Below, piece after piece: positions 5,801-63,200 of a stretch of 64,000 bases of DNA. The stretch is from Marsupella aquatica (lineage: Eukaryota > Plantae > Marchantiophyta): positions 24,681,538 to 24,745,537 of the forward strand of contig OZ316895.1 in NCBI GenBank assembly GCA_973895155.1. The letters run 5' to 3'. Every line of letters starts with the position of its first letter. The stretch's first letter is position 1. A program made the position numbers and the translations under genes. The notes under the pieces are model-generated. The model did no database searches and was not told the origin of the DNA. It saw only the letters and a program-made list of their open reading frames with translations.

Positions 5801-6559
5801 CATGGCCCCCAAAGGCCGTTGGGCAGCTCAAGCTCAAAAACTAAAGGGCTGGCTGCAGGCACAGCCACCAGTCCCCAAAGCAGCACCAACCCCGAATAGG
5901 TGCCCCACCCCCAGCCTTGGGGGAACTCTCTCCCCAATAGAGCAACTCAAACCTGCACATTCCCAAGAATTTTTAGACAGACAGATGGAAAACATGTGCC
6001 CGGTCATGACCAAAACTAGGATTTTGGTCAAATTTACCTCGTTTGGGCTTTGTTTTGAGACGGGTCACACCACGCCCCCGCAGAACAGCGCACATCATCC
6101 ATTTTTCAATGGGCATCGACCATTCTTGAAGGGCGCCGACGCATTTCTTGTGGAGCAATCCTTTGTGCAGAACTTGGTGCACCGATCGCCCGAGTTACTG
6201 ACAAGCATGGTTTGCAGGAGCCACATATTCTTGGTCCACAACCTGGTCCACAGAATTATGGTCACTAGAAACCTCCAGGAAACAACTAATTTGAGACGAC
6301 CTAATGGCCAACTCTAATCTGGGATCAAACAATTGTGCTTCTCAATATACAACCAAGGGCATTCAGCCTGTTAGCTGAAGCTCAGCAAGTAGTCCCGGTC
6401 CAAAAGGTCTTGCAAAGATGTGCAAGATTGCAAGTCTGGCTATCAGTAAAGGACCTCAAGCTGCACATGTACGTTATCAATTTTAGCAAACGATGTTTTG
6501 TGGCTTGGCAATGTTGGCTTAGCAAATTGCTTGGCTAGATATCACTGAGAGAGTTTAGA

Positions 6560-19870: not shown

Positions 19871-20106
19871 CCGAGTCCAATGTGTGTGGGGTCGTGTTGC
19901 TGAGTGTGAAGTAGTATCGTCCTTGAGAGAGTGCAAATCTAAATGCCTGACGAGGTGTGGATGATCCCGATCCCAGAGCCGGTTACGCTTCTCTAGCTGG
20001 TCGATTCCTCAGAACTTCATATTGGGATTGTTGGGTTGGCGCTAATCGTTGGGACTGAGGAATTTTTCGTAGTCGGGCGCATTCTGATTCCCAAAGGAAG
20101 AACACG

Positions 20107-25185: not shown

Positions 25186-26116
25186 AAAACCCTACCTGGT
25201 GGGAAACTGAAACCTTGGTGGAGCTCCTGAGTAAATCAAATAAGAGGTCATGAAGGGGAATCAGTCTAGATGCCCCCAAACCAATTCAAAATTTGCTGGT
25301 AAAAGAATGGTGAAAACCTGAGCCTTCTGAAGTGCAACCTACGCCCTCTGAAGTGCAACCTACGCCCTCTCCCTAAACAAGGCTAGGAGGACTTAAACAA
25401 GGGGTTTCAATATCTCTACAACTGTAGTAATCCTCAGTATATTTCTTACCTGATCAAAATGAACTCATGAACCTCTATGTTGGATCTTGCTGGGTGTGCT
25501 CTTTAACTTGGGTTCTTTGGGTCCTTTGACCTTGCATTTGGTGTAAGAGCAGTTGGCCTCCTCTTCAGCTGTGGTGAAAGGGCTCTTGGGCTGGTCAGTT
25601 TGCTATTGCTGAAATTGGTCGGTTCAGGTTTTATTGGTCTATATAAATAAATGGCTTTGAACACTAAGGACCCACACACAAATGTGTGCTTCTTGTGGGG
25701 AGATGTCAAGTAAGTCAGAGATGACTAGCTCCACAAAATGAAGCGAAGATTTCTTCTTAAGACATTTCTGTAACCAGCAAATTTTTTTATTTGGAATTTC
25801 ATTCTCTTTTAGGAATGCCCAAAATCTTACTCCAGGAAACCCAATAGGGCAAAGAAACAAACCCTGGATTTTGATTCTTGAACAAACTGATCAAGAGGAC
25901 TGAAATCGGAAAGAGTCAAATGCGCTACAATGCTACAAACGGTTATGAAGAGTAGTTGTCTTCTCTTCACCTTTGCTGTGGAGTAAATTGAATTTTGTGG
26001 TTGTGCTCGACTGTGCTTTGAAAGCTGCAGCAAGCCGAAACACAAAATACAAACTTCCGAATTTTGAAGCAAACCATGTATTTGCTATGCTGATCCACAA
26101 CAACAAATTTGTGTTT

Positions 26117-27265
26117 CAGCTTTTTACTAACCTGTCCTCCAAACTATCTGATATTACTAACATGCCCCCCAAACAAAATTAATTATCAACCTGTGTTAGG
26201 AATTGACTCTCTGTTCCCGGCTTCTAGTTAGTTTGGCCTTACTAGAGTTAGTTTAAGATAAGATCCACTTATTTAGGCTCACACATCTTAGTCACCCTTG
26301 GGGGGCATAGGTTGGAGTGAGAGTTTTCTTTCCCTCATTCTTCACATTTACTCTCATATGCTATGTATCCTTCAGGAGTTTCTCCACTCGGAGTGTCTCA
26401 TCGGTGTAGCGTCTAATTGAGTGTCTCTTTCATGTTCCGCATTGTTGTCTAGTCCGGAGCCAACAGTTTCTTATAACCCCCCCCCCCCCCCCAAAAAAAA
26501 TGCATTTGGTTCATTATTAACTCATATATGGGTTTTCATTGCCATGTGGCAAGTTGCTATTGGCTAGCCTTAACCCGCCACCGGCCCCCCTTCCCCTTTT
26601 CCGCAGGTTTTCCTGAGTAAACTTGAGGCCTGAAAGTGTTGGGTTTTTGTGAGGGGAGTGTGGAGCAAAAAAAAAGTATTTTTGCCCCTTCCGGACACGT
26701 AATTGTGCCCTGCAATGAAATGTTAGATATTGCTCTAGTCTTGTGACTCATGAGCTAACCACAGTTAGGCTAACTCAGGTTAGGACTTAGCTAAAGTTAG
26801 CGGTAGTGCTGTTGTGCATATAGCCAGGGCTGATGCCAGACCCTGGTGGAACTTAGGCTCATTGGTACGGAGCTAGTTGAGAGATAGGGAGAGCATGTGC
26901 TGTGGATGCTTGGTATGGCCTGTCGGCCTAGAGTGCAGTAAAGCTCTTGTATGTTCCCGTGGACGTAGCCTCATGTGGAGGTGAACCACGTATTTCTCTG
27001 TGTTGACTATTGTGCGTTGGATGGTTCATGGGCTTGCTGTTGCGAATGTTGTCTATGCTCAACATGAAGAAGAGGGGCTAAGTGGGGTGACAGCTAGCGG
27101 GTTAAGGCTAGCCAACAGTGAGTTGCCACATGGCAATGGAAACCTGTATATGAGTTAATATTGACCCAAATACAAAATGGGGGGCGGGTTGCTAATTAAT
27201 TTTTTTGGGGGTTGGGGCACGTTAGTAATATCGGATAGTTTGGGGGAGAGGTTAGTAAAAAGCTG
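26117..27265. mobile_element. Non-autonomous Mutator-like MITE, ~170-bp TIRs, 10-bp TSD
   Basis: Left arm cagctttttactaacc...(interrupted by a solo LTR)...ggctagccttaacccgc is the reverse complement of gcgggttaaggctagcc...ggttagtaaaaagctg. Flanks are ATTTGTGTTT and ATTTGCATTT. Confidence 0.85.
26194..26475. mobile_element. 282-bp solo LTR nested in the left TIR of the MITE
   Basis: Shares both ends with 18073-18236 (tgttaggaattgactc...cttactagagttagtt; ...ctagtc.ggagccaa.agtttctta.a). TSD degenerate. Confidence 0.8.
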
Positions 27266-27504
27266 ATTTGCATTTTTGAAATGCACATGCGCACTCATGA
27301 AGTGTCATCTTTTATCCTCTGAATGCTCTTCTGGTAAACTCAATATCGATATTGTTTATGGAATTAGCACATAAACTTACCAAAATGAATGATGGTCTCT
27401 CTATCCTCCCATGCCATACAACTCCCTAGAATAGCCCTTCAACTACTCCTGCTCTCCACTAGGGCTTGCATTTCATACCACACCATGGAATAGCCCTCCA
27501 GCTA

Positions 27505-39989: not shown

Positions 39990-40450
39990 CTTTCCCATAA
40001 TAAACCCAATAATTGTTCCTTCTCCATATCCAGTAGCACAGGTTGAAAGGATTTTCTATACCATAAGGACTGTCATTACCATAATAAATCCAATTGTTAG
40101 TTTTTATTACTGAGTATTTTTCCTTCTCCATATCCAAGTAGCACAGGTTGAAAGGATAAGGACTGCCAATAACATAATAAACTCAATTGAATGTTCTTTT
40201 TTATTACTGAGTATCGTTCCTTCTCCATATCCAAGTAGCACAGGTTGAAAGGATTTTCTTTACCATAATAAACCTGATTGTTTTGCCACAGGTTGAACGA
40301 TTTTCTATACCATAATACACCCAATTGTTCTTTTTTGTTACAGAGTATTGTTCCTTCTCCATATCCAAGTAGCACGGGCTGAAAGGATTTTGTATGGCAT
40401 AATAAACCCAATTGTTCTTTTCTCTTACTGAGTGTTGTTCCTTCTCCCTA
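39990..40450. repeat. Degenerate tandem repeat, ~90-110-bp unit, ~5 copies
   Basis: Repeated ttccttctccatatccaagtagcacaggttgaaaggattt...ccataataaacccaattg. Confidence 0.85.
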
Positions 40451-41587
40451 CCCGGCTGCCTGGCTGGTGACGCTTGTTTATCAGCAGGAACCACCACACC
40501 ATATAATATGCAGGGAGTATGTATTTGTTCCCAACCCAATGGGGAACCGCTGTACATGTACGTAGCATACCCTGAGTTATTATTGGGCCACATCACTTTC
40601 AAGGTGGGTCTGGTGTTAAACTTAATGGTGAGGGGCACGAGTAAAGCCGTGTAGCACAGGGACAGGGCGATAGGAACCAGAGGGGCTATTTTGTGCAAAA
40701 ATTCCGGGGGCTTGAGCTATGGTCCGTGGACAGGGGGGTTACCTTCTTGCTTTGCGAGTCCAACATCTTTAAGCATGATAATGGACTTTGAGCCTGACAG
40801 CCTCACACAACCCATAAAATTAACAACTACCCCTTCTCCACGGCCGTCACTTCAGTTTTTTAGCCACAATTAAGTTTGACACACCCTAGTAAACCTTGAA
40901 CACCATGTCCATGCTGGCTTACAAAAAAAAACCTTGAGCCCAAGCCTCAGGCTCATGTCCTTGTTATTAGGGTTTAAATAGGATATGGCGTTCCTTAAAT
41001 TTCTAGTCATTTCTCGTTTCGCGCCTTTAGCTTCGAAAATAAACATAAATGACAAAGTAATTCAAATTGAAGGCTGATCATGTGACTCGCATTCAAGCGT
41101 CATGGAACTGGTATGTTATATAGATTTGTTTTTGTTCCTCTCGTTCAGTAAAAGTTGGAAATCTTTCCTCGAACAATGTTGGTCCCATCTTCGAGTTAAT
41201 CTTTGCTCCTTTCAACAATATTCTTCTATCTCCTCTCTGCCCCAAACGAACCCCGGACACGTATGGGGCACAGTTAATACATCTCTGTTTGCAGTCCCAA
41301 AAAATCTAAAACCCTCGCTTATCGTAATGCTATTCTCACAATAGGCAGGTCCCATAGCATCCAACATCTGTAGAGCCGCGCAAACAGAAGACTGTCCAAA
41401 ATTAACGAATGACTACTATTCTACATGCTTGCTTGCATTTACAGTCGACTATATTATCGGTGTGATCCAAACTATAACTATATTTGCCACTCTTTTCACA
41501 GACAGTGGACTGAATTCTGCACCATCTGATAAGAGGACGTTCAATTTCGAAGGGGTTCACAGCCGTATGCCAACCCATCAAATGTAA

Positions 41588-43598: not shown

Positions 43599-45229
43599 CC
43601 ACTTTCTGCATTCAGCACAAGGAATACGTGGTTTAAGGAATACAGTGTTCCCAATTCAAAAACTGACTAGGACGAAGGAAAGTAACGAGTACGTACCATT
43701 TCCTAATACTGCAAGCACAACCTCTCTACTTAGTTCTAGGAGGGAAAAACCGATGCAAACGCCAGATTTGTCCATTTCGCAACATTACCGAGAAAACTTA
43801 GGAGATATCGTAACAAAAGATCAATCCGGAAGATTCAAAAACAGTTTTCACCCAGAAATCCAGTGAATCGGTTCAGAACAAGAGGGACTAAACATAGAGC
43901 AGTTTGGTGGAAGTCGCCGAAGGACTCGAGTGACAAAACAGTGTCGCACGCCCAGTTGAATTGCAGATTTATTTAAATCAAGAAAATCTCGCAACAGAAA
44001 TCAACCGATGCTTTGCAAGCTAACGTGAATGTGCAAAGAGGCATGAAGTAAGGGAACATTCCCTAGTTGGACGGAAAAAGAGAAGATTGTACTCCTGAGT
44101 ACAAAAGTACCTCTCGGTCCAGTTACGTTTCTAATAAGTACGCGACCAAGCATCTTGCTAGAGTGACATTTCAACAGACACGGCCGCTAATGCTAACACA
44201 TGAGCTACTCCTCTACTGTGGAAGGATTCAGAAGGCATCAACAGAAGTGGTAGATGACTTTCGCCCAACTTGCAAACCAGAGACGAGGAGGAAGCAGCAG
44301 CAAACCTTGACGCCGCAGAGAGACGCATGGTCAGGGCGCCACACAAGGCAGTCATCGCCGTGAAGTACTCCGCGTATGAAGAACCTCCTTGCCGAATCGT
44401 GGAAGAAATTTCCTAATTGGCAATCTGCAAACAACTACTGTAGAGCTGGATCCCAACAATCAAGCAACATTGTTGAGCTTCAGGTCTGTCCTCGAGAAAT
44501 CCTCGCGGGAAGCAGTACCTCCAAAACCCTCGATAAACCTTGTTGGACAGATCGATCGGGACAAGGTTCCAAAGTTGGAGGTATTTGCTTGATCTACCCT
44601 CAAAATTAAACTTGTTACTTGATCTACCCCTTGAGGTATATGAACGGTCCAGATCTGAGATCGAAAGGTACATCAATAATCCAGATTTGGGAAAAGTATC
44701 GAGGGCGTTGATTTAGCAAACTTTTTTCAGAAGGGGGTCTACTAAGCATATCCTCCACGAAGTTGAGCTCTGGATGTTTGAAACCAAGTTTGCTAGCTAA
44801 CTGGTGTTATTTAGGGTAATTTCCTCCAATTAGAAAAATGTACGGTGATTTTTTTCAGTCGCACTGGTGTTATTCAGTCTATTTTCCTCCTATGAAATAC
44901 AACTACAAGGAAATTTTTCAGTTGCATCAGGATTTTGTTTTGGGTTGTAACATGCTACAACTACCCGGCTCTGGGATGCACTCTCAAAGGAGGAGGTACC
45001 CATCTTCATCGTCTAAAGTGGGAGACTGAGAAAGTTCCTGAGCTCTTCCCAGATGCAACTTTTGTTTTTTGGCGGTTTGAAGTTTGAAATATATTAAGGA
45101 CTTACTAGAGGGGGATGTTAAATACACCCCACCTTCCCTATCTTCACCCTAATTTAATAAACCCACCCCAAACTGACCTACCCAGGTCATTACCCATTTC
45201 TCACTTCCAAAAGTTTTCAATCAACAAAT

Positions 45230-45795
45230 TTTGACTTTCAATTTCTCCCATGACATGGGGCTGAATTGGATTTGATAGAAGCAATTTGGAAAGATATTTG
45301 CAAGAAGTCTAACATTGTCAACTTTCATTACAAACTGAGAGAGCAACGAAGTTTGAAAGATTAGCTTGTCATTCACTGTACACTTCTCTCATTTGTGAAA
45401 GTTTATGAATATCAACTTTTTACTTTCAACTTCTCCCTTGATATATATAGCAACTTGGAAAGATCTCTCCAATAAGTTTGATATAGTGAACTTTCACCAC
45501 AAATTGAGAGAGCTATGAATTTTCAAATACTACCTATCTGTGACTGTACATCTTCCAAAAGTTTTGGATCAGCAATATGAGCTGTTCCAATTCCCCTTTG
45601 ATGTGCAGCCCAATGGGCTGTTCTTGGGTTCAAAGCACCTTGGAAGAATTTTACAACCAGTCTAAAATTGTGAGCTTTCACTACAAATTGAGACTGAGAG
45701 CTATGAATTCCCAAAGATTGCATTGTCACTCTCTGTACATTCTTCCTACCTCCAAAAGTTTTTTCTCAGCAAATTCAGACTTTCAATTTCTCTCT
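45230..45795. repeat. Degenerate ~175-bp tandem repeat (3 copies) at the insertion site of the large MULE
   Basis: ctttca..acaaa.tgagagagc.a.gaa.t...aa.a...ctgtaca recurs at ~45320, ~45490 and ~45673. Confidence 0.65.
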
Positions 45796-46505
45796 TGCAC
45801 GGGTATGATAGCCATGACAGAAAACAGAAAACAGAAAACCTGTTACCAGGAAATTTTTTGCTGTTAACAGTCAAATATAACTGTTACCAGTAAGCGATTC
45901 TCTGTTACCAGTTTTGCATCAACCATAGCCCTTTGGTCCGAATGAAAAACTACGCTAATCACAAAAATTTTCTGAAGTGAATTAGGTTTAAAACAAACAA
46001 TTATTGTGTGCCATCCGATGGATGAAGAGTACTAGCAATCCTCCCTTGCAACAACATTTTGATCTGGAAGATAACTGAACACGGTATGGGGACTATACTC
46101 AATGAAACATTCATTCAAATATCACTATTCGTCCAAGCTAAAAAGTGAACCTTAGGGTGGGACCCACCACAGAACAAGTGAAGAGTAGTGTCCAAATGAA
46201 CTCAATCAAAATGAGTTCACTTAAATGGACCGAGTACCGTGACAAACAAATGACAAAACACCTCCTAACGATTTATTTCAGAATAATTGAATAAACGTGG
46301 CTTGAAAGATAAAACATAATGATATCAACTTACACATTTTAAATAAAACATAGTGTAATGCTTACACTACACGCGTACATAATAAAAGCAGCGCCCGGCG
46401 CTAACCAAAAAATACTGAATAAAACAAGTAACATATCCGTTGGGTAAAGACAAAATAGTGACTATCCGTTATATTGAACGACCTATGCGAAAGTTTCAGC
46501 CCCTA

Positions 46506-49500
46506 TTATAAGCCATTCAAGTTCTGCCTCTCCAAGACAAGCCTGACTTCGCCCACAGTCAAAATTGGTTGGCTACAAAGAGTCGACTCCTCAACCTCAA
46601 GTTTGAAAACATTTATGTACACCCAGTATAGATGTTTACAAGGCATGTACGACTTGCCACGCAAATGTCGTAGGAAGAAGTCCTCACAAGAGCAAGCAGG
46701 GAAGATACAGATTTGCACGAAGTACGTGCTTGGTGATCAAAGGTTCTCATGGGTTCGAATTGAAATTGCTTTCCAAAAGCATTTCCAGTCCGAACATTCC
46801 ATTCCCCATCCAAACTCATCTCTTCTTGTCGTGCAAACTCCATTCGCTTAGTGTGACCCACAGTGAGATTAGACCGAGGTCTTGAGTTCCTCCCATTCCG
46901 ACTACCCAGTCGGACATTTGGCTCCAAAAACCTTATTGTTTCTGGGAACACGTTCACATTTATCCTGAGGTCAAACAAAGATGGCGCAGATCGACTCGAT
47001 CCTGTTGTTCGGGCTAAGACAAGTCCTTGCTCTTCGAGGAACGTGATTTCAGAAGGAGATAGGTTTGTACCCTTCAGAACAGGCAAAATTTCAGGAAGAG
47101 GAGGAAGCTGATGAACACCACGACGCGGACGACTCTTATAACAGGTTTGGTTTGGGCAGAACCAAATCATTTTGGAGATCGGTTCACCCCTGAAGAGATG
47201 ATGGCCCTTCACGACAATTCCAACAACACCGTCAAACAAATGGAAGCCAACCTTCTTGATACGATTTCGACAGTCATCGCGATCAGAACTCCCATTGAGT
47301 GTCCCGTTACACTAGGGACCTGTTCCATACTTGGACGTCCGTCGCAGCTACCACTGCCCCAGAGGGACATCCTTCTCGAGCACAATCGTGCGTGAAAGTG
47401 GATTCTGAAGTGAGGCTGGTGCACTGAGCGGAGGTTTTGTGGATCTTGTTGTACGGGTTGTTTGAGGGGTATTGTCCAATGAATCAGTATCACCATCTGA
47501 TGTGTCCATACCAGAGAGATTCACCACTCTTGTCACAGGATCATAGAATTTGAGGGAATGGAGGCAAAGTCAGTTCTGTTTAGGTTTTTCCTTTTCAAAC
47601 CATGAGTATTTGGTGTGGTTATGAGAACGGTGTCATGCCGATGGGAGTCTTGTGGAGAGACAGTCCCTTTTGCGTGTCCCTTTCTCTTCATTGACTTGGT
47701 CACGATATCTCCGTTGAGGGGAGTACTTCTTTCCAAATCGAAGTCCGCCGCGTTGGAAAGAGGCATGTTGGTCGCATCTTCAAATAACCTCGGCAAACCT
47801 GCTTGATCGGCGGAACGGAACGCCAATTCCCATATAGTCGATCCCTTTCCTCTGTTCAACCCTTTTCGATATGCATTGTATCCCGCAACTTGAGACAGGG
47901 CTCGGTTTTGGTCCACTTTGCATGCTTCAAAAAGATCAACTTTTTTCTTTGTAGCCCAGGCTTTCATAGACGCATGCCTTGATTCTGACCCTGTACAGTT
48001 TGGAATCAAGGCACCTTCTTCTGAGCTTTTGCTCTGCCATAGTCCGAATGCAATAATCAGTACTAGCATTGTATTACCAGCGCCCGGCGCTGGCTCCGAC
48101 AAGTATTTATAACATACGTGAAATACAATTTAGATTATGATTCTGGAACTTTATGGACATGTTGGACTCAAATACGAGCAAATCATACCAACGCCTGGCG
48201 CTAATATAAAGTTGATGGAAATGAAAGACAAGAGAGGAGATGGATGTCATACCACTCGAATAAAATTGCCCCACTGGCGCCATCAAACAACCCACTAGGA
48301 TATCCAGCTTTGTAGCATCATGAGCTTTCCAGGGACACAGTTTCCTGATTGCCACCAAACCACAATCTCTCGGGACATGCGATACGCTACCACAAACGTT
48401 GGAGTGTTTCTTAGTTTCTCCCAAAGTCTCCGATGTTTCGATTGACATTCTTCGAGTACTCCTTCCTTGGAATGCGATGGAAAGATTGATAAAAGTGAAA
48501 TGCATCAGAGCGCTCCCTCTCTGGGTCTGGGTGTCCACCAAAAAAAACATTTCGCACAAGATTCCGTCCAGCTTGTGCATTGTCCACCATAAACCCTTGG
48601 ATGACAACCTCCTGTAATCCATTCTCCTTGCAAACCTCAATTATAACTCTCCAAGCCTTTTCGAAAGACTCAGTGTCTTCACCTTTCAACTTGCATGTGA
48701 AAACTGTACAAAGTGCACGGAAGTTATGGTCGTAGACATGCGCGCTAAAAGTAAACCAATCGGTTGTGATACGCTGCATCACATCAAAACTGACCCAGGC
48801 TCCTTCGAGTCTTCCACCAGGTTGCATCTGTCTCAAAAGATCCACACCGGAACCGTGACCCTTCGTGGTCATTTTAAAGATGTGAGGCCTGTCATCTTGA
48901 CATCCCTGACCCAGGAGCAAATATCTCTGGAGAAATGACAGGTTAATCTTCTTCTGCATTTGCGAGAGAAAATCAAGTTCACCCCGACCCTTTTGGTCTA
49001 TCCTAACGCTCCGACAAAGAGATGCAAACTTCTGGGGAGTGGAAAGTACCATCACAGACTTCCATATTTCAGTTTCTTCGATATCAACCATGTCGTCAAC
49101 ATGTTCGCAGAGAGCTTTCACTATGGACCCTGTAGCAGAATTCAAGATCCCAGCTGGTTTTGCCAGAGGATTGGCTTCATGATTTTTTTAATTAAATCCT
49201 CAGCCATCTTCTCCGCACTCCTACAGAAGGTTTTTCTACCTGGATGATTATGCTCACCTATATGAATCGCCAGGCGGGACATATGACTACATGTTTCCAC
49301 ATCAAGTAATACTTGCGGGTACATATAGAACAAACGGGCAGGGCAGTACTTGACACAAAAAGGAATCTGATCACAATAATGACACACAACACCGCCCTTT
49401 TCGATAAAAGATCCGACACCATACTGACCACTAAGCTTTGGAGTACCCTGCCATGCCTTAGCATTTGCCTTCTTCTTCCTTTGGAAGTACTCGCAGGACT

Positions 49501-50236
49501 TGTTCCAACATTCAATGAATCCCGTACAGGTAACCTTACCGAATTGCCAAAGTTTTTTCGGCTGAACGTTCGCAGTAGTTGGAAATATGTGTGTCCAAAT
49601 GTAGCAATCTTTGGCACGGTCCATGTCCCTAAGCCTAGAGCCTTTAGAGAGCATCTTGTCAATGGGTGGCAATTCAAACACGACGTTCCTGTTGTACTTA
49701 GTTGGCAGACAGGAGACTTGCTCATGTCTAAAATCACCCGTTGATATGAACCTCGATAACTCGCTATGACCAATGGATTTGAGTAACGTATCCATTGCAC
49801 TCCGTCGATACACGACCTCCAACTGGTTAGAGCTTCCTGGAGTCTCACCTTTAACGATAGCATGTTGTGGGACTTTCATTTTCAACGTAGGACTTGGAGT
49901 GTGATCCCCATCTTCACTAGAAGAAATCTCGACAACATCAAATGGAACTTGGGGGACACTGGACGGTCCTTCATGTTGTCTTACTCGAAGTGAGTACAAA
50001 ATCCCCGCGTATAGATGCCAAAACCGTTCACCATCATCCACATTGAATGTTGCTGCATCTTCGATGTCATCACTGGTTTCGAGCTCTCGAACAATGGCCT
50101 CAATATCATTCATCCTCAAATCAAATCTCCCGCAAAGGTATCTCTCTCGGACCTGCTTGTACGTGTCTTCCATAGGGACGGGGATGGTCACAATATCTCC
50201 AGTCCCGAATCGGGATAGAACGATGGACCGAGACAT
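46506..50236 (-). pseudogene. MULE transposase: GCM-like zinc domain, DDE core, C-terminal SWIM finger; disrupted
   Basis: N-terminal C..C.N..C...C..C...CPAR...H.GEHNHP. DDE core VSFDVM, FMVDNAQAG, DAFHF, then PNCTGSESRH after intron 48252-48034. SWIM finger CSCEDF...PCKHLYWVY. Frameshifts (~49185 and others) and TGG->TAG / CGA->TGA-type stops. Confidence 0.88.
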
Positions 50237-51199
50237 TGCAATCGAAAACAAATAACGAGGGCTGTAATGTTTCGAGGAAGAAAAGTCTATGGTAATATGG
50301 AGCTTATATCAGTCGAACATGGGAACTTCACGTTAACAGATCCGTTTGTATAAGACATAAAACATAGTCGACATAGGATCTGTTGGCGACATAAATGATT
50401 TTTGTCGTTTTTCCCCGATAAGTCCGGATCTCAGACGCATACATAATGCCAAAAAAGACACCACAAAAATCTTTAACAGACTCTAAGATATTGTATAGTT
50501 GGAACAATTTGAGTAGCGCCTGGCGCTAACTAAAATGTCTCCAACATAATATGCCCCAAATCTCGATATTTCATACTAGCCCCTGGCGCTAGTATACGAA
50601 AAACCCCTCCAGATATCCATCAATACTATGAAATAATTGGATTGAAATGATCAATGAAAATGTGAATTCTTTTAAAACTATGGATGAAAAATACTCGTTA
50701 TCACTAGCGCCGGGCGCTAGTATAAGATGCAAGTAATGTTTCCCAAAAACCATTAAAACAATAGACATTTCTTTAAATATGGGGTTGTTTTGATGAAATT
50801 TATATATTCGAGGCACCATTTAAGACCTATTCTATAGCTGTTGTTTTTACTAGCGCCTGGCGTTGCCATGACAATCATCCAAATTATCTACTTCAAGGGA
50901 TGTTGTTTATAATAGCGCCCGGCCCTAGTATTCCAAGTGAGGGAGGAAAACGGTCATAACGGTAACATTTAACGGTAACTTTTGAGTTCCGTGTGTGTTA
51001 CGCTTCTTCTACCGCTTGATTTAGCTAATTAAGTTCTCAGCATACATACATTGGAATCCGCCAAACTTACGAGCTTCTCGCTTTAATCGAAGAGTTCCGC
51101 TGAACTCCACCTCCTTCTAGAATATATTACACATTGAGAGTTGATTAGAGTTCCATAATTTCATTGTACGATAGTTCGTACGCTTCTGGAAGGAAGACG

Positions 51200-54100
51200 A
51201 TGGAGGTATTCTCCTGTCACGCGATTGACATGGGTCTTAACACCAAAGACGTCACTATGGGTGCCAAAACCATCTCCTTGTACCTGAGGATCACGAAGGG
51301 ATGCTGTGAAGGCCGGTAAACACCAATTTATGCCCTTAACACCAGAATATCATAACAAGACTCCGTCACACATCACCCAAGCTCAATCCCTAAGAACCAA
51401 GGTTGGGAATCAGATCCGAGCTCATGATAGTTCTGGTGAGAAGGAGTCTTCATATCGGGCCCGTACACACAGGGCCTAGCGCTACGGTGCGCATAGGTCT
51501 ATACGTATGCTTACTGTCATAGGTATGTTTCTATTCCGCCGCCGGAATGTACCCATAAACCAGTGACTCTTGACTGATTCCCGGCTTAGGGACTTCTAAG
51601 CCATTGCCCCACCACTCTGCCATTCCACTCTCAGCAATCAGAGCTATGACAGTCCTCACCCAGCCCGCTTCAATGCACCCTGTACACCTCTCAGTGGCGC
51701 TGCTAGTCCCATCATACACTTAGATTGCCTCACACACACACACATCCATGAGAGAAATGAGGCCTGAGAGGAAAACTCAATTAGATTCAACGATGTGCAC
51801 AATAGTTCACTGAGAACACTTGATCCGAACAATAGGCCCGAAGGCTGTCTACTCCAGATTGCAGCGTGCTTGCCCCGCAAGCCCCATGCTTGCCATGCAA
51901 GCTCAATCCTGAACCTAAGCCCGGCTCACTCCAGATTGCGACTGCATATTGGACTCAAACCAATCCCGTACTTGCCTTGCAAACTCAATCCTGAACTCAA
52001 CCTCCTTCATTGCACTTCATTCTTGGGGGCACATACAGATCTCACACCTCCAATTCAGAACGTCAAGTTACGCATACATAGTTGACTCGACTTCAAAGCT
52101 GGTACCAGGCCTAACGGCGATCTACCCCAGACTGCAATGAGGCCCGGCCTCACGCTTGCCCTGCAAGCTCCGCTCTGGCCATAGATCCCTTAGTGCTCTC
52201 CACCAGACAAAGGCCGGGACTCCCCATGGATCACGTAGCCTTGCCAGACTGAACAGTAAATGCTCCTCCTGCTGCCCCTCAATCAGTGTCTCAGCCTCCC
52301 TAATGTGCTCACCACAAATCAAATTGACATCCTCCCCACAGTTTACAATCACCAATACATCACCTATCACCAAGGCTCTGTATCGAGAGAAAAGAACCCA
52401 GTTGTGCTACTCACTAGAAAGAGCCACAATCCAGCTCGCAAACCTAGCAACCCGTTGCTGTGAAGCTTGGCTGATTACTCCCTGAGTAATAGCACAACCA
52501 AGCTCTCCCCCAACACGCAGCGTCCAAGTCCAGCCTTGCTTGCACAGAGCTCCTCCCTGCTGCTCAGTCTAAGTGAGATCACACAACTGAAGTCCCCCCC
52601 CCATCTCTACCGGGGGGCTGCTCTATATACTCTCATACTGAGCCCAAATGGCTGGGTACTACGCTGCTGGAGCCCCATCCCAGCCCTAACAGAGTCGCCA
52701 CTATCTCTAACTACTGAACCCTAACTCGCAGCTTTATTTCTATCTCGAATTGGCTATGTACTTCGGATTTGGCCCTCCTCCATGGTTTTCGCGAGCTTAC
52801 GCCTCCTCTCCCGATTTCTGTATTCAACCATTTGCTGCGTGGATAGCAGCGTTGGAAGCGGCTTGAGCTCCTCTTTCCAACGAGGTCAATTATAGCCCAT
52901 TTGGTCAAATACACAGAGAGTTATGCCCCCGCAACCGAGAGGGGGTACTCACTGCTGCGCTAACCCGAGTTACATAGCTAACCCGAGTTCGGCTAACCTA
53001 GCTATCCTATCTAACCCGAGTAGAGCTAACCCGTGGTCTCGGGTTAGGCCGCTACCCGCTATCCGCTAACCTAGCCTAAGCTGAGCCCGAACCCGAGCTT
53101 ACCTATGCTAACCTGAGCCCGAGTTTAGGCTAACCCGAGTTCAATCTAATCCGAACCTAGGTTAAGCCTAAGCTGAAGCTGTGCTGACCTAAGCTAAGCT
53201 GAAGCCGTGCTCACCTGAGCTAAGCTGAAGCCGTGCTCACATAAGCTAAGCCGTGGTCGAGCTTGGGTTAACCCGAAACTGAAGCCGAATCCGCTAATTC
53301 CGGCCATAAGTTAACCCGTCACACTAATCAGGCCGTATCTCTCTTAATACACCTCCGTTTCCCGAGTGTTTTATATCGATTTTACTCGCCTTGACCAGAT
53401 CTTTCCAATGCTCTTTACAGATCCGAATTTGGTGACATATTGAAAGAGATATGGTCGTCGACCACCCGCGATATAGTTTTTATTTCCCTACTCTTAACGC
53501 CATGATTGCCCTTATTCTTGCCATCTTGCTAATTGTTATGTAATATCAATAGCTACTCCTTGCATATAGCAACCTACTTAATCAGATTACAAAATAAGGA
53601 CCATGTCATTGGCGTCACATCTCCTCTTCATCCAGAGGGTATAGTGTTGTTCCTGACCAAGAGCGAGCTTATTTTGAATCCTCGTAGTCTTCGTTTACTG
53701 GTTCAGTTTATACACGTCGTGTAACTCGTTCCACAAAGTTGTTGCCTCCTACTTCTGTTAGCGCTGTTTTGGTTCCTAAATCTCTGGGTAGAAAGATGGA
53801 GAACCTCGACACGATTGCGATCCAAGATGTTTCGGACTGCGCACTCGCAGAGACTGATCTCATCTCAAAACATGTCATGTGTTTTGGAAAGGATTCTCGT
53901 GGATTTGACAAGGAGCCGCCTTGAATCCCTCTATGCCGATTGGTTCATATGGAGGTGGTTCGTACTTTGCAGAAAGATAGCTCTTCCATCGAGAAGCTAA
54001 AAGACTCATTTCGCAGTATGGGTTACAATTCATCCATAGGAATGCGTTTCTATGTGCAGCCAACGGATGAGAATGGAATTGTTCTGACCTGTACCCAGGA

Positions 54101-57100
54101 AATTCGTGAGTCATGGGATCCAATTTGGCAATTGGAGAACGAGAAGTTTGAGGCTGAATGCAAGGCTGATCCAGATTTTCTCGTGTTGAAGGATAAGATG
54201 TTCTCTGTCTTCGATGGAAATCACAGGCTGTACTCATGGACGCTTGTTACCGAGGAGAACCCTGACAATCCAAAATACCATCCTTGAGTGCTCTGCACAA
54301 TATTTAAGGGAGACAAGGGATCTCTTATTGAAATTGAGGCAGCTATGCACACCGTGAATCAGTAAGTTCTCATTCTTTTCCGGTACCTTCTTTGAATCTT
54401 GCGAGTGTTCTATTTAAGAGCGCTTGGCGCTGGTTATAGATAAATTGTACTTTGACTCTAACTCGCTGCATCTCTTCGTGTAGGCTTGGCCAAGCAGTTG
54501 TTGAGCCATCTTGGATTCTCGATGCAGATAGAATCAAACTAATTATGGCGCATGACCTTGAGTATTACAGTAAACTGATTGACCCGTCTAATTTCAAGAA
54601 GTTTGAGAGCATTCGGCTAAAGACTCGGAAGGGGTCATGGTATACAAAGAAGATGCCACAGGAAGCTCTTGTTTACATTCTATGTGAGAATAAGATAAAG
54701 TCCTATTCTCACCAATTCAAGCTTGACATGGAGGCAGCTGAGGCTCAAGGGAGTCCCTGGTCGGTGGACAAGATTTCCAAACGCCATGCGGCCATGATGA
54801 AGGACGCAACCAAAGACTGGGCAGTGAAGTCATCAAAAATTACGCCCTTGTTAAGTCCTGAATTTGAAGATTTTCTTAGTACATGTGCAAAAATGTATGC
54901 TGTCACAGAGAGAAACAAGAGAGAGAAGAAGCCTGACGACGTCGTATGTACAATGGACCGCGCCCGATTGTTCACTGCTGTTTCTGCCCTAGACCCAAAG
55001 TTGCGGAGCATCCTACTTATGGCACATTGCAATCCTGAGCTGCGGAGACAGTTTTTCCACCCGGCAAGTGTTAACGACGACCCAGTCAAACAATGGTGTC
55101 ATACTTGGATCACTTGGAATAGTGTAGAGGGAATTGTTGTCGGCATGTTACATTCATGTGTGCGTGAAGTAGAGCAAACTATGCCCGCCACTAGATTGGA
55201 AGAGTGGAATTGTGGTTCGTTTGATGATCTTGTTCAGTTTGTTACAAATGAATTCAAGAGATATGGTGATTCTATGAAGAGTAAGTTCTTTCACACTATG
55301 TGGCCTTCAAAGTATCCAGACAAAGAAGACTATACCCAGAAAAACCAGAAGCAGGCTAAAAGGTATCTTTACAGGTTCTACATGCACATGGAGGTAACCA
55401 AACCTGATTACTTCTGGGCATATCCTGCAGCTTTCATGAAGTGGATTACAATAAGTGAGGATGATGCCATAGCTGATTTGTACTCCATGTACCCAGCAGA
55501 GGGCATATTTCCTCCAAGACCTATGACAGAATGGGAGAGAACTCACTGCCCCTAGTATCTAGATACAGATAGATGGGATTCTCCTTTTGATCAAAGGGAG
55601 AAAGATGCATTCCATAAGCTTTCAAAGTCCCACATACCAGCAAAAATTGTGTCCGACATGAAGCAGAGCCTGCTAGACAATGTAGACAAGTCTGCCACTG
55701 ACTTGCAAAGTATCTGTGAAACGACTATTGTTCATGTGGACCGAAGTCGCAAACCTCGAGCGAAAGCAAAAGCGGAGTTAGCAGAAACAAGCGAGTCAAC
55801 AAAATCTGGGAGGAAAAGTGAGTATAGTGTTCCCTAGTATGGCCAGCGCCTGGCGCTGGCTTGAATTATCATGCGAATTCACATTTCTTTCTACATTCTT
55901 AGGCCTTTGTTGTAACCTAAGTGATTTGCATTTGGTTAGCGCCTGGCGCTAGCTTGTTTGAATACTCAGGATTTACTTGTTCTAACTAGGACCTATTGGT
56001 AATTTAGGAGGAAGTCTAATACTGCGGGAACAAGAGATACTAAAGTGGATGCTACACCTGAAGTTTCTGAGGCAAACACCGGAGCTTGATCGGACCCCAT
56101 TACTCCTGTCGACAAGGGGAAGGTAATAGTTCCGGTTGACGCCACAAGTACCAGGAAGAAACGAAAGAGAGCTATCAAAGGTGGACCTTCTTCAAGGGAG
56201 AGTGTTGCAGCATCTGGTGTCCAACGTGAAGTTGGAAACTTCAAAACTAGAGTGTCTTGTCATGCCATGGTTGAGACAAGCATATCCGAATTTTTGACTC
56301 GACTTTCAACAAGGGGGAAAAACCTGAATGGGTTAGTAATGTGGAGAAGTGGGGGAAGGATCTCGTTAAGTCGGGATATAAAGAGAAGGGTGTTGTGCGG
56401 GGAGGAAAAGAAAGATCATTTGGAGTGGATGCGGGTTTCATTTACCTACCAACCGGGTTCAAACCAACGATCATAGATAAGAAGGTTCCTAAATGGAACA
56501 CTCCAGATCAGTCCATGGCTAGATCTTTTTTCAAGTCCATGGATCCATTTCTATCAGATGATGGATTCCTTGCAATTCTACACAATGGGGAGTATGATCC
56601 CATGTCTCAAGTCATTGCTGCCTGTCAGGAATCGAGAAAATTTCAGTGCATATGCACGCATAATGTTGTAATGTCTGTCCCGATGTACGCGGCAAAGACA
56701 GACCGTCAGGTAATCATGTACTCTTAACTATGTTGCATTTTGAAGTATAACTTGTTTAACCTGGAGTTGCCAACTAACACTTGGGATTGCTTTCCGCAGA
56801 TGTTTACCCTCAGGCTGGACATATTTGGTTGAATTAATGGGAAATGCAAAATTCCCAAAGACCCTAAATTCCGTCCACTCTCCATCAGTGAGGACCCCTC
56901 GGTCACCAATTTGATCGGAGTCCCTTCTCTCAAATCCGATCCATTCCCGCAAATGGCGTTTTCTGGAAATGCTCGCCTGTCTGTTGGGTTTATGCAATCT
57001 GTCATTGAGCTTGTCACCCGACCTCATCATATTTTTATGGATTGGACCGCAGGGGCTGGAAGCTCCTTCATTGCTAGAGACTTCTCCAGGAGGTTTGTGC

Positions 57101-57788
57101 TCGGGATAGAACATAGAAAAGAATTTATTGAAACCACTTCGAAGATTTTCATGGATTTGTTGTCTCCCAAAGAGATTGCACTTTTACCTCCACCTATGCC
57201 TATTGCCGACAGAAAGAAGCGAGATAAGCTTTGGTCGGTACTCAATTTTGATTCTGATGATGAGTCCAGTGAAGGTGGAGATGGAGAGGAACAAGGTACA
57301 GGGGACTCGGAGGAGGAAAAGGAAGAACCTTGTCGATCTCCTGATGAAACCGATAGTGATGACTCTTCCGAGTAATGTTCATAAACTCGTAAGCTTCTTT
57401 CTCCATTCCCGTCAATTTATAACATTGATGTGTTGTTTTGGAGAAAGGCACCTAACTTCCTGGATTTTGTTTGATCAGGTCAGAGTGGAATGCAAGGAGA
57501 CGTTTGAAACTGCGAAGGAGGGTTGCTAGACACAACATAGAAACACCAGAAAAACCTTTTGTTCTTCCCTCCTATGTAGAGAAAGCCGCAAGGAAAACCG
57601 AGAGCACAAGGACGCTTTGCTGGGAAAACAAAGGTCTTCGGTTACGAAGGGGTGTTGGCAGGAAGTTCATTAAACATCCTTATGTTGATGACTTCTCCCA
57701 CAGCCAGTACGTAGATGATGAGGTTGTGTCCACGGACAAATCCGAGAGTACAGATTCTGGTTCCGAATCAGAATCTGTAGAATTGTGA
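51200..57788 (+). pseudogene. Element-borne spliced gene: ParB/Srx-like N-terminal domain plus C-terminal beta-class (N4C/N6A) DNA methyltransferase-like domain; disrupted
   Basis: The ATG at 51200 continues in frame across the solo LTR into 53625. Motifs IPLCRL...VFDGNHRL (54213); VDAGFIYLPTG...PKWN (56443); VIELVTRPHHIFMDWTAGAGSSFIA...RFVLGIE (57040). Introns ~54362-54483, ~55818-56007 (phase unresolved), 56710-56799, 57372-57478. Stops at 53685, 53922, 54285, 55553, 56087, 56830. Confidence 0.75.
51215..53619. mobile_element. 2,405-bp solo LTR with 5-bp TSD TCTCC, inserted in exon 1 of the ParB-MTase gene
   Basis: TGTCACGC...GCGTCACA termini. TCTCC at 51210-51214 and 53620-53624. No gag/pol coding. 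Internal gctaacccgag repeats. Confidence 0.9.
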
Positions 57789-59456
57789 CATGTATTGAGG
57801 AATTTAGGGAGTAATTTTTTACTAGCGCTTGGCGCTATTGTCTTCCCCCGAACACAAGCCCCGGGCACTATATTCGAATAGTGAGCCAAGGGGCGCTCTA
57901 TTCGAATATAGCGCCCAGGGCGTTGTGTTTGAGTTTGAAGTCAATTATTTTATTTTTTGGACTTGTGGCGTTGTGTTCGAATTGTGGCGTTGTGTTCAAA
58001 TTTAAGGTAATGTGCTTGAATTTTGGCTTTGTGAGATGCATGTAGGGTGTAAGTAGGAATGATAGACATAGAAGTTATGTGTATTAGAGAGGAGTGTGTT
58101 CAAGTTTAGGTTTTTTGACTTCCCAACAATATTTGCTCAGGTCAAAGGATGTGTAGCTAAATAATTGAACCACTGAAATTACACAAGGGGAGAAATCAAA
58201 TTTCAATAGTAAACAAAACCTGACAAACCATACGTACCAAGTGTACTATTATCATTTAGTAAAACATATTCGTCCACTTTTCACAGTTGTTTGGTTTACT
58301 GTGGCCAATTTGCTCGTTTCTATTATTTAATCTTTTATCATGCAGCCTGGAATGTTTGTGAGACTGCTTTGTTTCTATTGGAGTGCCTTGATCTTGAGGG
58401 CAATGGAAAATTGAAAATAGAGAAAGTGAGTCATCAGACCTAATTATGCACATAGGCACTATGGGTTTCTTTGACAAGACGTCGTGGCGTCAGTCAGAGG
58501 TTGATGTGAAAGTCCGTTGAAAGTTCACAAGCACAAGAATATATTGATACTTTCGGATTGCTGCTTAATATTTTGGAAAGAGCACACACTTCTCTGAGAA
58601 TGAAGTATTTTGAAATTAGCTTACATTTCTCAAAGGACGATGGATTTCGCAAGTTAAAAGTGCGGATGAGTCGGACGATTTTAAGTAACGTATTGTAGTT
58701 GCAACCCAGTTACCTTTCTCCTATAGTCACTTGTGCATTTTCAAACACAAAGTCAATTTCGAACACAACGCCCGGGCGCTGTGTTAATATGGCGCTGTGT
58801 TTGAGTGAAAACATTTTTTTTGCCTAAAGTCCCTGTTTTGACCATATTCAAACACAACGCCCGGGCGCTGTGTTCGGGGGAAGACAATAGTACCAACTTG
58901 TATTCAAATCCTCTCATTGAGTCCTTATAAATTAATGCCTCATTCCTTGTGTTTTTTACAAGCGCCAGACGCACGCCAAATGGTGATTCATAAAGTGAAT
59001 ATTTCCGGCTCTTATTTGTTTAACATGGCCGTTTGGTCTTTGTCGTGTCCTACCAACGGTCATCAGAATGAGACAAATAGTAGTCAATACATAGTATAAT
59101 ATACGTTTGGGATACCAACGGCCATTTCATTTAGGTCCGTTATTTTTCCAAAGAAACCCACATCGGCTGTATTCAGATGACATTTTTGGATCTCTAGGAT
59201 GACATTCGGATCTCTTGTTGACAACTTTTTTGCACGACATTTTTGGATCTCTTGTTGATGGCATCTCTCTCAGACAACATTTTAGGATCTCTTTTTGACG
59301 ATAATTTTCAAGGACGACACTTGTCACGGACGACAAGTTTTTGGACAGGCGACTGTTTTGAGACCGACACCCGTTTTCGGCCCCTTTGCGGACTTTTTGC
59401 GTACATTTTTTGCATTTTTTAGAGGGGAAGTTGCCACTAGATTGGATTTATTAAAC

Positions 59457-60250
59457 ATGGAGAGAAACGGTAAGCTCATGGATTGGGAGGCAGCGTTCCT
59501 CCCTTCTCGTGTGCGTCCGGAAGAGAGCCATTTCAGTTCTTTTGAGTCACGGATGGATACTGAAGAGACTGAAACCTCTACTTTCCTAAACCGTCACGCT
59601 CTACCGTATGATGAGACTATTAGTCCTGGAGAAAAGAACATCCCGTGGATCGTCGATTCTCCACCGCTCCCATTCGCAAGCAGGTTCTCGTCTCATGAGG
59701 TTGTTCCTGTTGATGGTGTACTGCCAATCGATAGGAGAGTTCAAGAAATGTTTGGGCGAGTTGACTTTAAGGACAGTAACATTCCCAATGAAACTTATAC
59801 GAGGGCAGTGCGTCGGGGTCCTTTTGAGAGATACATTCGATTGCGTGGTCTTGGATTTAAGAAAAATTGGAGGAGAGAAGCGGCTGGAGTGGAGGATGAT
59901 TGCAACTCTGAAAGCTAGATGCAATCACTTATTTGTTGTTCCTCCCGTTTTTCACAAAGAACGGCATCGCATTGTTCAATTTGGTGATCACTTTAAGCTA
60001 GCACCGAGCGTTGCTTAAGCTCTTTCGATGTTTCAGGATGGAGTCACCCTCGGCTTAGTTTTTAGGGTTTTCCCCGGATGTTGTCTTCAGGAATTCCATA
60101 GTTTTTCCTGCAGTTGTTGGCTGGCGCCCAGCGCTGCTTTTGTTTTACTGGAAATCCTCAGCCGGGGTCGACCGTGGCTTCTGTATATCAGATTTCTAGG
60201 CCTGCAGGTTTTAACTTATATGTGCGTTTTTTGGACCTGCGCCGAACGCG
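59457..60250 (+). pseudogene. Third ORF of the large MULE, unknown function, frameshifted
   Basis: ATG 59457 opens 153 codons (MERNGKLMDWEAAFLP...). After an apparent frameshift at the A-run near 59862, a protein-like frame continues (KIGGEKRLEWRMIATLKARCNHLFVVPP...*ALSMFQDG...GCCLQEFHSFSCSCW). 3' end uncertain. Confidence 0.5.
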
Positions 60251-63200
60251 TTATGTACTTTGCGATTATATATGGCAGTTTTATTTTTCCCCTACGCATT
60301 TTGACATATATTGGTCTCGGATTTTGTTTATCTCAATTGTTAGACGATTTTATTTGTTGTAAAATACATGATTCCGTCTAGTCCAATTTCCTTTCACGCG
60401 AATTTGATCGTCTTAATTTCTATACCAATAGTTTGAAACACATATTTCGTCCACTTTTTTCATGATCATTGTTCACTGCTACCCAAACATTGTTCATTGG
60501 TAACAGTTTCTTTTTGCTGATAATAGTAACTGTTTGCTGTTACTGTTATTTGTTTGCTGTCGTTTGTAAATTCCCCTCTTGCACCCTAAACCCAACACTC
60601 CTAACAATGGAGACAACACACATAATAGATTTGAGGGACGTCTGTCTCCTGCACCTTCTCTATGTCATGGATCGTCTATCAAACACTCTCCCCCTTCAGT
60701 GACATAATATACAGTTTCTAAAGATTCGCAACTAGTTTCCTGCTAAAGACTACACAGTGTTACTATGCTTGAGAGACAGTTGGCTCGTCTTGATGCTTTC
60801 CACTGGATAATTTGAGAGCCAACGAGAGAAAAAGTTGTCCAGATTGACAGCACATTTCAAGATTTGTTTGTGTAACGTTACAATGTTGGGTCAAAATGGT
60901 ACTCCGTACACATATAAGCAAAGTCTATCTACCCATGAATCCTATGCCTTATTCTCTCACAAGTAAAAAACTAAGAGCTTACGTCCTTGTGATTGGAACC
61001 CAGTAAAGTATTGAGCTTCTTCCAACCCTTAGTGATAACTAAGAGCTGAGATTTTCATTCAGAGGAATCCACCTACTCTTAAATCCTCACTTATTCATCT
61101 CTCCAATCTTCATCTTCAAGCTGTTAAATTTTGTGCCCTCCCCTTAAACCACAACTTGCCCTATATAAGGGGAAGTGTCCAAGATCTCCCGCTTTTTCCA
61201 CATTTCAATCACTGTTCTCCTCTGCATGCCAATTTGGTCCACAATTTCAGGAAAAAACTCCTTTTTATGGTAACTATGGGTAACCATAAAAGTAGGTAAC
61301 TACGGGTATTGGTCTTACGGGTACCATACGGTTGTGGTTTAAGTTATCTACAGTAAGTTTGAAAGCTTAGTTACAATCCCTGATATGATTTTCTTTGTCA
61401 TCTTCAATGGACAGGCACATCCAATTTAAATGTAGAGAGATATTTCTGAGTGGTACTATTTACAGATCGGTGATTTTATCTCCAACATTTTTGTGGCTCA
61501 GGTGTCCAACAAGCATGACAACAACATTCGGGGTAAATATGTTGAGTGCATGTGATAATGCGGACGTATTTGAAGGTTGCTTCAACAAAATGAACAACAG
61601 CACCCGTCCAAAAACGAGACTCCAACCTGCCTCGTAAGCTTCTCCCTCACATGCATCATATCCTCCGGTTCTTTAATGTTTCTTCTGCACAAGGACGTCT
61701 GGTCCTTATGATGAGCTTTCTTGGTGATGAGGCACATCGCGTTATTATGGATCAGGTAGCTTTCCTTTTTGTATGTAAGTTTATCTTGGAGGCTACTAGA
61801 GAGCAACTGCTTGACCCCACCAAACAGTTGCTCGCTTGCTATGGTGATGCCAAATGTGCACGAATAAGAGTGACCCTAATCAAACCTGGTGATTTCTCTA
61901 AAAATCCTGTTACTAGACGGAGTTGGAATCTCAATGACAACCCGACTGCTGAGTCTGCCAAAAGCAAAGGCATTTACGTTAATCAAACACCCCAACGTGG
62001 GAGAGGACATGGGAATTACACTTGGCGTCCCAACACTCCTAACAATGGAGAAATCACACATAATTGATTCTAGGGACGTCCGTCTCCTGCACCTTCTCTA
62101 TGTCCTAGATTGTCTATCGGACGCTCTCCACTTCAGTGACATAATATACAATTTTTTGAAGACTCCTGATATATTAGCATCTGTTGCACATTGATCAAGA
62201 AATGTTGAAACTAAGTCAGAACTTCCATATAGAATGTTTCTTTACGTTGTTAGCAGTAGAGTACCCATTTTTACATCAATAGGTTGTGTTCCTTTGACAT
62301 CGACGGTTTTATCTATATGGATTGTTGTAATCTCCTGTCCATGCATCTTCTAAAGTTATGCTGTCAATTCATCTTTACATCAATCTAGTAGGTTGCTTAC
62401 CCACTGAATTCTCAATTCTACTGTTTTCCTTATAAGTCCCAATAAGTAAAAACTTTGGCATAATTTCTTGATTTCCGCTTGTTGCTATCCTGGTTGCTAT
62501 ATATCTAAGGATCCATTGTTGCTTTCATTTAACTTAACTAGTATTGTATGCTGGTCCAGATGACTAACAGCTTACTATATTGCCTAATGGTTGACGCACA
62601 TCACCCAAAAAAATGATCGAGCCTCACTCCACTTTATCCATCTCTTATACACCAGCCGAGCTTTTGAATGGCTACCCCTTCACAATATCTTTTCTGATTT
62701 TTTCACCATGCTTCACAACAAAGACCTGACCCCTACATTAGACTCAGTCTGTTTTGGATGGAAATATTTGGAATCTATTGCTACATTATGCTATCATCCA
62801 ACACAAGTTTTTTGTTACTTCAACATCGACACACTATTATCTACTGAAACCTTACATATGCGGATGCCACTCTAAAACGGTTCATAGAATTCCTTGATCC
62901 ACTAACAAGATCCAAAACCCAGCTACCCGAGAACGCAGACTATAGCCATGTATGCACCACCGACCTTCGGATCATTCACGACAAATTCCTATGAACTGCT
63001 CTCTCATTTGGTCTCAATCACATTCTACTTCAACCCACCAAGTTTAACAAAGTTTTCCAGGGAATTCTTCGCGGATGGATACTATTATGCTCATTTCTCA
63101 ACTTAGAAGACTCCCTCACTGACAAAGGAACACGAGTACTCCTTGACATTTGCTACAACTACTGGATGGCAGGGGCTCAATGCAACACCGGTCGACATCG

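Follow-up and report, generated by a model that had tools for sequence, protein, structure and literature searches.

A multi-copy Mutator-type element of the liverwort Marsupella aquatica with a ParB-like and methyltransferase-like cargo gene and a candidate target palindrome

A stretch of 64,000 nucleotides from the liverwort Marsupella aquatica (assembly GCA_973895155.1, contig OZ316895.1, positions 24,681,538 to 24,745,537; hereafter the window) contains a large transposable element at positions 45801-60575. The element belongs to a multi-copy Mutator-type family in which a cargo gene, encoding a ParB-like region and an amino-methyltransferase-like domain, is as repetitive as the transposase gene. 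Our tentative reading, to which we assign a probability of about 0.45, is that the cargo product is a non-catalytic factor that binds palindromes dispersed through its own element and keeps the element expressed or mobile without DNA methylation. The new aspect is a land-plant, apparently non-catalytic version of a cargo type that is known from algae.

The element is enclosed by a perfect 9-bp target-site duplication (TSD), CTCTTGCAC, at 45792-45800 and 60576-60584, and starts with GGG and ends with CCC. The degenerate terminal inverted repeats (TIRs) lie at 45801-45920 (forward strand, beginning GGG and containing four CTGTTA[CA]C units) and 60456-60575 (reverse strand, terminating in CCC) and are made partly of repeated CTGTTACC units. 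Aligned as an inverted repeat, the terminal 120 bp scored 73, while 300 shuffles averaged 28 and none of them exceeded 52. Without a nested long terminal repeat (LTR) the element measures 12,365 bp, and 7.7 of these 12.4 kb are coding. The published criteria for Mutator-like elements (MULEs) include a TSD of 8-11 bp (PMC6446971), a range into which the 9-bp duplication falls, and together with the transposase evidence it fits a divergent MULE. A preliminary description of the window had proposed the perfect TSD and the degenerate GGG...CCC termini, which the sequence and the shuffle test bear out, and a length of ~12.4 kb without the LTR, with which the measured value agrees. The layout it had given, with a transposase on the reverse strand, a divergent spliced gene on the forward strand, an extra open reading frame (ORF) and a palindrome, is present in full within the element.

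The transposase gene (46506-50236, reverse strand) is broken by frameshifts near 49182 and 48474 and by further stops. It contains an intron at about 48252-48050, the acceptor position being approximate, and a SWIM-like motif at 46509-46736 on the same strand. Five unnamed homologues with 51-59% identity were found. When a structural model of one of them, P0001 (pLDDT, the model's confidence score, 51), was searched with Foldseek, the top four rows were ISCth4 (best E 1.2e-3), which we take to be an IS256/Mutator-family transposase. The MULE families of Pfam gave no match to the transposase. The SWIM finger, which many plant MULEs have at the C-terminus of the transposase, scored 21.4 bits in the distant relative L001 against a cut-off of 19.6, and the corresponding piece of the window reached only E 1. 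Searches with the transposase alignment gave one locus from 37 metagenome candidates, with the transposase only, and none from 18 candidates in prokaryote genomes. The L001 gene (L001:844-4161), on a 4.7-kb metagenome contig, is apparently an intact two-exon transposase relative with a SWIM finger. The N-terminal ~100 aa of P0001 (window 50236-49950) were modelled as ubiquitin-like, with many Foldseek rows at E 0.02-0.1.

The evidence for further copies was taken from contigs of public runs, six of which hold parts of the window. Contigs of four runs were compared over the whole element and contigs of four over its left end, with three runs common to both; runs X5 and X6 cover small shares of the window. 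The depth jumps exactly at 45801, from 90 to 1575 in X1 and from 310 to 6416 in X4. Unlike flanks precede 45797-45801 in six of the 21 loose-end rows listed (of 57 in total), in runs X1, X3, X4 and X5, and the left-terminus loose ends in X3 and X4 comprise five contigs each, with an agreement of 0.47. The left terminus, which is the end surveyed, is thus joined to several insertion sites, and the depth step and the unlike flanks support a multi-copy element. Within the right TIR, unique contigs start at 60520 (X1) and 60547 (X4).

Contig depths, when summed, do not give a number of copies; the two genes were compared by a ratio within each run. The X1 bins range over 1217-1709 for the transposase and 861-1511 for the cargo gene. 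Division of the median cargo depth by the median transposase depth gave 0.83, 0.97, 0.86 and 0.74 in the four runs. The cargo is therefore no single-copy gene of the host; it likely moves together with the element and is likely a standard load of the family. Host-type introns would suit a single-copy host gene lying between the element ends, but the exon depth exceeds by far that of the unique flanking contigs (19-20 in X1) and the gene lies inside the perfect TSD pair; such an origin is largely refuted and we regard it as extremely improbable. Contigs of similar high depth, hand-picked from the depth tables, were found in X1 (289-426, or 15-22 times the unique depth) and X3 (442-629, or 13-19 times). 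They cover the left subterminal region, transposase, promoter and cargo exons, and have insertions at three of the frameshift sites of the window copy. These contigs probably represent a younger, intact subfamily with both genes.

The cargo gene (51200-57788, forward strand) comprises about 1,225 modelled codons in five exons with GT-AG introns. Exon 1 (51200-51214 and 53620-54361) is split by a solo LTR; exons 2, 3 and 4 lie at 54484-55817, 56008-56709 and 56800-57371, and exon 5 (57479-57788), which was placed from splice sites only, is probable. Six in-frame stops were located at 53685, 53922, 54285, 55553, 56087 and 56830, each a single C-to-T step from CGA or CAG in a CG or CHG context, and two frameshifts at the joint of exons 2 and 3 and near 56310. 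The copy in the window is dead, with both main genes broken, and would have been disabled by the solo LTR and by C-to-T decay. The divergent spliced gene of the preliminary description is thus confirmed, with the probable fifth exon and the broken state of the copy as additions.

A permuted beta-class amino-methyltransferase-like domain is encoded at 56320-57200 (forward strand), with YLPTG in the place of motif IV and motif I kept as DWTAGAG. Exon 4 matches the DpnA-type enzyme M1.HpyAVI (E 4e-4), and the exon-3 piece has 39 relatives by HMMER; a word-based protein search with exon 3 at near length had returned none, a weak blank given the 39 that HMMER later found. Of ten exon-3 relatives that were looked up, five proved to be proteins of Calypogeia fissa (CAM6096077.1, CAM6082147.1, CAM6123651.1, CAM6128600.1 and CAM6096687.1), encoded on contigs that all differ in length. 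The relative P0022 matched PF01555 below the cut-off (E 6e-5), and its structural model has a pLDDT of about 90 in the N-terminal half. Foldseek placed CcrM first for this model (E 3.6e-4), and VIA aligned it over 141-167 residues with CcrM, M.BceJIV, M.MboIIA, M1.HpyAVI and M.PvuII (Z 7.2-7.9). The beta-class fold and the permuted order, in which the motif IV region precedes motif I, are both present. The window and all three Calypogeia proteins that reach this region retain the S-adenosylmethionine (SAM)-binding motif I, in the form D-W-[TS]-x-G-x-G, followed by G[LI]E as acidic motif II; in this DxxxGxG-type motif I the usual F is replaced by T or S.

The catalytic motif IV, [DNS]PP[YFW] or DLPY, was found in none of 38 aligned rows. 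The alignment, A4, has 40 rows, of which one that is gapped and one misaligned exon-4 piece were excluded at motif IV; P0026 was left out. D and N are absent from the first position of the motif, where most rows have Y, A, F, S or C, and Y, F and W are absent from the fourth, where most rows have T or N. SPPY occurs once among the 39 homologues, in P0045, at a site upstream of the domain. When the family consensus is aligned with a cyanophage DNA adenine methylase, its DlgFi-LPTG pairs with DMVFCDLPYG, which places xLP[TN]G opposite DLPYG. The first and fourth residues of motif IV activate and stack the target base. The A4 profile gave no match among PDB sequences and no alignment with the FP_Mushu methyltransferase, and P0022 had no counterpart among 20 candidates in viral contigs. 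As judged from these alignments, the cargo domain is probably a SAM-binding, non-catalytic amino-methyltransferase fold.

The permuted motif order, fold and SAM-binding loop are shared with CcrM, M.PvuII, M.RsrI, the eukaryotic N4CMT and MpDN4MT1, but those enzymes carry DPPY, SPPY or TSPPY where the family described here carries xLP[TN]G. The methyltransferase-like cargo of the preliminary description therefore stands as regards the beta-class fold and the SAM loop and fails at motif IV. Its further suggestion that the protein marks the element becomes unlikely because other residues stand in place of the catalytic motif in every one of the 38 rows with letters at that position. An inactive methylase domain within a transposon has a precedent in DIRS1 (PMC4738411). 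The protein could also be an active, non-canonical amino-methyltransferase that writes N4-methylcytosine (4mC) or N6-methyladenine in or beside the palindrome and blocks silencing by 5-methylcytosine, in line with the marking proposed originally. The retention of motif I and G[LI]E and of the whole beta-class fold would suit such an enzyme, as would a CCNGG in the palindrome, the type of site recognised by bacterial 4mC enzymes (CCSGG is named in PMC8885841), and 4mC enzymes of bacterial origin function in Marchantia (bioRxiv 10.1101/2021.02.12.428880). Against this stand the first and fourth residues of motif IV, and we consider the active enzyme improbable. The family-wide loss of motif IV shifts the prediction from a protein that writes a mark to one that binds or shields.

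The ParB/sulfiredoxin-like region is encoded at 53925-54361 (forward strand), with a DGNHR motif at 54213-54227. DGxHR/GxxR is the nucleotide-binding motif of the ParB/sulfiredoxin superfamily. The region gave weak matches to TIGR03187 DGQHR of NCBIfam (E 0.15) and to the N-terminus of PD-Lambda-5_A (E 0.0017), the matched part of which is presumably ParB-like. Nothing meaningful was found for this ORF in PDB sequences, PHROGs or phage genomes, and neither the cargo pieces nor the third ORF matched a Pfam family. The DGNHR motif and these profile matches weakly suggest a ParB identity.

The palindrome, AGCGCCNGGCGCT, is 13 bp long and has 12 matches with at most one mismatch in the window, where 0.02 would be expected, and every match lies inside the element. 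Copies begin at 46390, 48079 and 48190, at 50515, 50578, 50706, 50852 and 50914 in the divergent promoter region (50237-51199), and at 54419, 55845, 55938 and 57824, the last ending at 57836. All 12 are non-coding, in 3' regions, introns or promoter (p about 9e-6), with five in the promoter and five in introns, so that the dispersed palindrome reported earlier is now placed entirely within the non-coding DNA of the element. The ratio of observed to expected CpG is 1.18 in the promoter and 0.55 to the left of the element, a difference due in part to the motifs themselves. The matching pieces of related contigs often begin or end beside motifs, as at the joints 48094->48187, 50416->50506 and 50720->50907, and loose ends of such contigs lie near motifs at 50703 and 50931. 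This suggests that the palindromes are conserved islands. Matches to the palindrome at 85 loci in viral contigs were attributed to chance; almost all were single matches, and none was element-related by tblastn.

Four observations support the self-binding reading indirectly. The non-coding placement of the motif matches that of the binding sites of VANC, the anti-silencing protein of Arabidopsis VANDAL elements (PMC5735166), the TIRs offer the transposase a different repeated unit, related contig pieces often end at motifs, and the promoter keeps its CpGs. The transposase and cargo genes would be transcribed from the shared divergent promoter, the transposase would bind the CTGTTACC units of the TIRs, and the cargo protein would load on the palindromes, the SAM-binding, non-catalytic fold serving as a DNA-gripping module. 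The bound protein would keep host methylation away from the CG and CCNGG sites or attract activators of the host, an action that would resemble that of VANC and be built from unrelated, prokaryote-derived parts. The cargo is predicted, and on the present evidence likely, to be a DNA-binding anti-silencing or helper factor.

The palindrome might instead be a site for the transposase or for some host factor, with the cargo travelling with the element and aiding transposition or chromatin independently of the motif. The AtMu1 transposase is reported to be sufficient for sequence-specific activation (bioRxiv 10.64898/2026.08.24.746577). Related palindromes with other spacers occur on a nested TA-flanked element, and the motif type is accordingly not unique; in addition, Pfam, NCBIfam and the protein search revealed no DNA-binding domain in the middle region of the cargo. 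However, the TIRs have their own CTGTTACC unit, and the AtMu1 paper locates the binding of the transposase in TIRs. In red-algal Plavaka elements, too, a ParB-like accessory gene is accompanied by inverted repeats (bioRxiv 10.1101/2025.02.11.637652). We hold this explanation to be rather unlikely, though one to be taken seriously.

A more specific form of self-binding is that a land-plant Mutator lineage has turned a bacterial partition-type module into an anti-silencing device. The ParB-like part would act as a clamp which loads at parS-like palindromes, present in all non-coding parts of the element, and spreads along it, while the methyltransferase fold, catalytically dead, would hold or recognise the cytosines that the host targets. 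We regard this as doubtful. If it were true, the spacer-variant palindromes on the TA-flanked element would point to several transposon families with their own protein-motif pairs.

The cargo might also have been captured a single time and then multiplied along with the element in the manner of a Pack-MULE, as a neutral passenger that brings no benefit. The window copy is a pseudogene, and 19 of 22 classified differences between it and other copies change an amino acid, as private decay predicts. This count was dropped as a selection test, the differences being mainly private to a dead copy. Against a passenger, LP[TN] and the neighbouring motifs are conserved in relatives of about 28-68% identity, the relative P0008 is open across the exon-3 stop and frameshift of the window copy, and the same pair of domains occurs on unrelated transposon superfamilies of algae (PMC12477816; bioRxiv 10.1101/2025.02.11.637652). 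A passenger without function is accordingly hard to credit.

Several results weigh against the self-binding factor that we favour. Neither Pfam nor NCBIfam backs the ParB assignment at a significant level, Pfam giving no ParB match, and a word-based search with the 356-aa middle region found no relatives among longer proteins, again a weak blank. For the methyltransferase-like domain, the top VIA rows are the tRNA methyltransferases Trm14 (Z 8.8) and aTrm11 (Z 8.1), which span only 82 residues, the C-terminal half of the P0022 model is of low confidence, and the profile alignment at motif IV has a probability of 17% (E 0.0015). Since a Mutator transposase needs no partner to activate the family it belongs to (bioRxiv 10.64898/2026.08.24.746577), the palindrome could be one of its sites. 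The distant relative L001 is accompanied by neither cargo nor motif, yet at 4.7 kb its contig is too short to serve as a test. Among the contigs of the public runs, none that spans transposase and cargo in another copy was found, and the linkage of the two genes in other copies is for that reason inferred. That they travel together is likely from the comparable repetitiveness of the cargo (0.74-0.97 of the transposase depth).

The cargo of the preliminary description, thought there to be undescribed for a plant MULE family, has counterparts in algae, where ParB plus amino-methyltransferase accessory genes are known, including in Mutators of Chondrus. Among the closest by description is Sola1-1_Ec32 of Ectocarpus, whose accessory gene combines ParB with an N4C/N6A methyltransferase and whose authors propose self-binding and self-modification (PMC12477816). 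Both it and the present element are giant DNA transposons in which an accessory gene with ParB-like and N4C/N6A methyltransferase domains lies on the strand opposite the transposase, and the accessory protein has 1,104 aa in Sola1-1_Ec32 compared with about 1,225 here. They differ in that Sola1-1_Ec32 is a Sola-1 element of a brown alga with a 4-bp TSD, while the present element is Mutator-type, in a land plant, with a 9-bp TSD. Motif IV is missing here, and the likeness to the algal proteins is one of domain layout by description.

In red algae, the Plavaka accessory genes PAG2 and PAG3 of Bostrychia, and also Mutators of Chondrus crispus, provide methylase and ParB-like accessory genes for which self-binding has been hypothesised (bioRxiv 10.1101/2025.02.11.637652). 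They share with the present element a PF01555 methylase and ParB-like cargo, Mutators included, and inverted repeats beside the ParB-like gene that were proposed as binding sites. The Plavaka elements carry three accessory genes, one with the ParB-like domain joined to a 2-oxoglutarate oxygenase and another with the methylase joined to SET, whereas both domains occur here in one protein; their repeats form tandem arrays, unlike the dispersed palindromes in introns, promoter and 3' regions described above. Reportedly, such accessory genes were also described in green algal transposons by Iyer in 2011. A land-plant Mutator with ParB-methyltransferase cargo was not found in the literature searched, with most subscription papers, Repbase and Dfam outside that search.

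VANDAL elements are likewise MULEs with accessory genes and have a short motif found mainly in introns and in the non-coding DNA between genes and at the termini (PMC5735166). The VANC motifs are 9 bp, non-palindromic and tandemly repeated, in contrast to the dispersed 13-bp palindromes here, and the anti-silencing activity that has been demonstrated for VANC is a prediction for the present cargo. No domain common with VANC was seen when the cargo pieces and the third ORF were compared with Pfam families. The VANDAL analogy drawn earlier is supported as regards the confinement of the motif to non-coding DNA. VANC is described as the only protein for which binding to its own transposon, with an epigenetic change of that transposon, has been reported (bioRxiv 10.1101/2025.02.11.637652). 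The self-action of algal ParB-methylase cargo is a proposal, for which the palindrome, non-coding in 12 of 12 cases, provides a sharp candidate target. The likely young subfamily, with a possibly intact gene, and the relatives in a sequenced liverwort make the hypothesis testable in a land plant.

The solo LTR (51215-53619, 2,405 bp, TG..CA ends, 5-bp TSD TCTCC) was inserted after cargo codon 5. Some contigs skip it, with joints at 51209->53620 and 51212->53623 in X1, X3 and X4. Its depth is far above that of the host element (about 7,400-8,500 in X1), and it contains internal tandem repeats of 26 and 33 bp at 52959-53251. The TA-flanked element (57838-58887) was overlooked previously; it has 1,050 bp of non-coding DNA with perfect 19-bp TIRs and a TA duplication, and was inserted at the end of palindrome 57824. 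Other contigs, again in X1, X3 and X4, skip this insertion with the joint 57835->58888. It carries variants of the palindrome with a 2-bp spacer (58767, 58856) and a 3-bp spacer (57910) and may be a member of a second family with its own motif. The third ORF (59457-59918, forward strand, 153 aa) lies in a region that is multi-copy in the public contigs. An ATG-initiated ORF as long occurred in 5 of 500 shuffles and a stop-free run as long in none of 500, and no match was found in Pfam, NCBIfam, PHROGs or PADLOC. Rfam gave no match within 45000-61500, and the protein atlas no result for any part of the element.

About four units of 160-200 bp make up a degenerate tandem array (45190-45800), and the element was inserted where this array ends. 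A 127-bp duplication with 88% identity (60591-60717 and 62029-62154) begins 7 bp past the right TSD, and the depth climbs again at 61041-61600, which points to a further repeat downstream. Elsewhere in the window, a second degenerate tandem array was located at 40012-40453 and inverted-repeat pairs at 26116-27266 that could be a small DNA element. A NOP56/NOP58-like host gene with long introns occupies 20059-22548 (NOP5NT E 7e-22, Nop E 2e-16).

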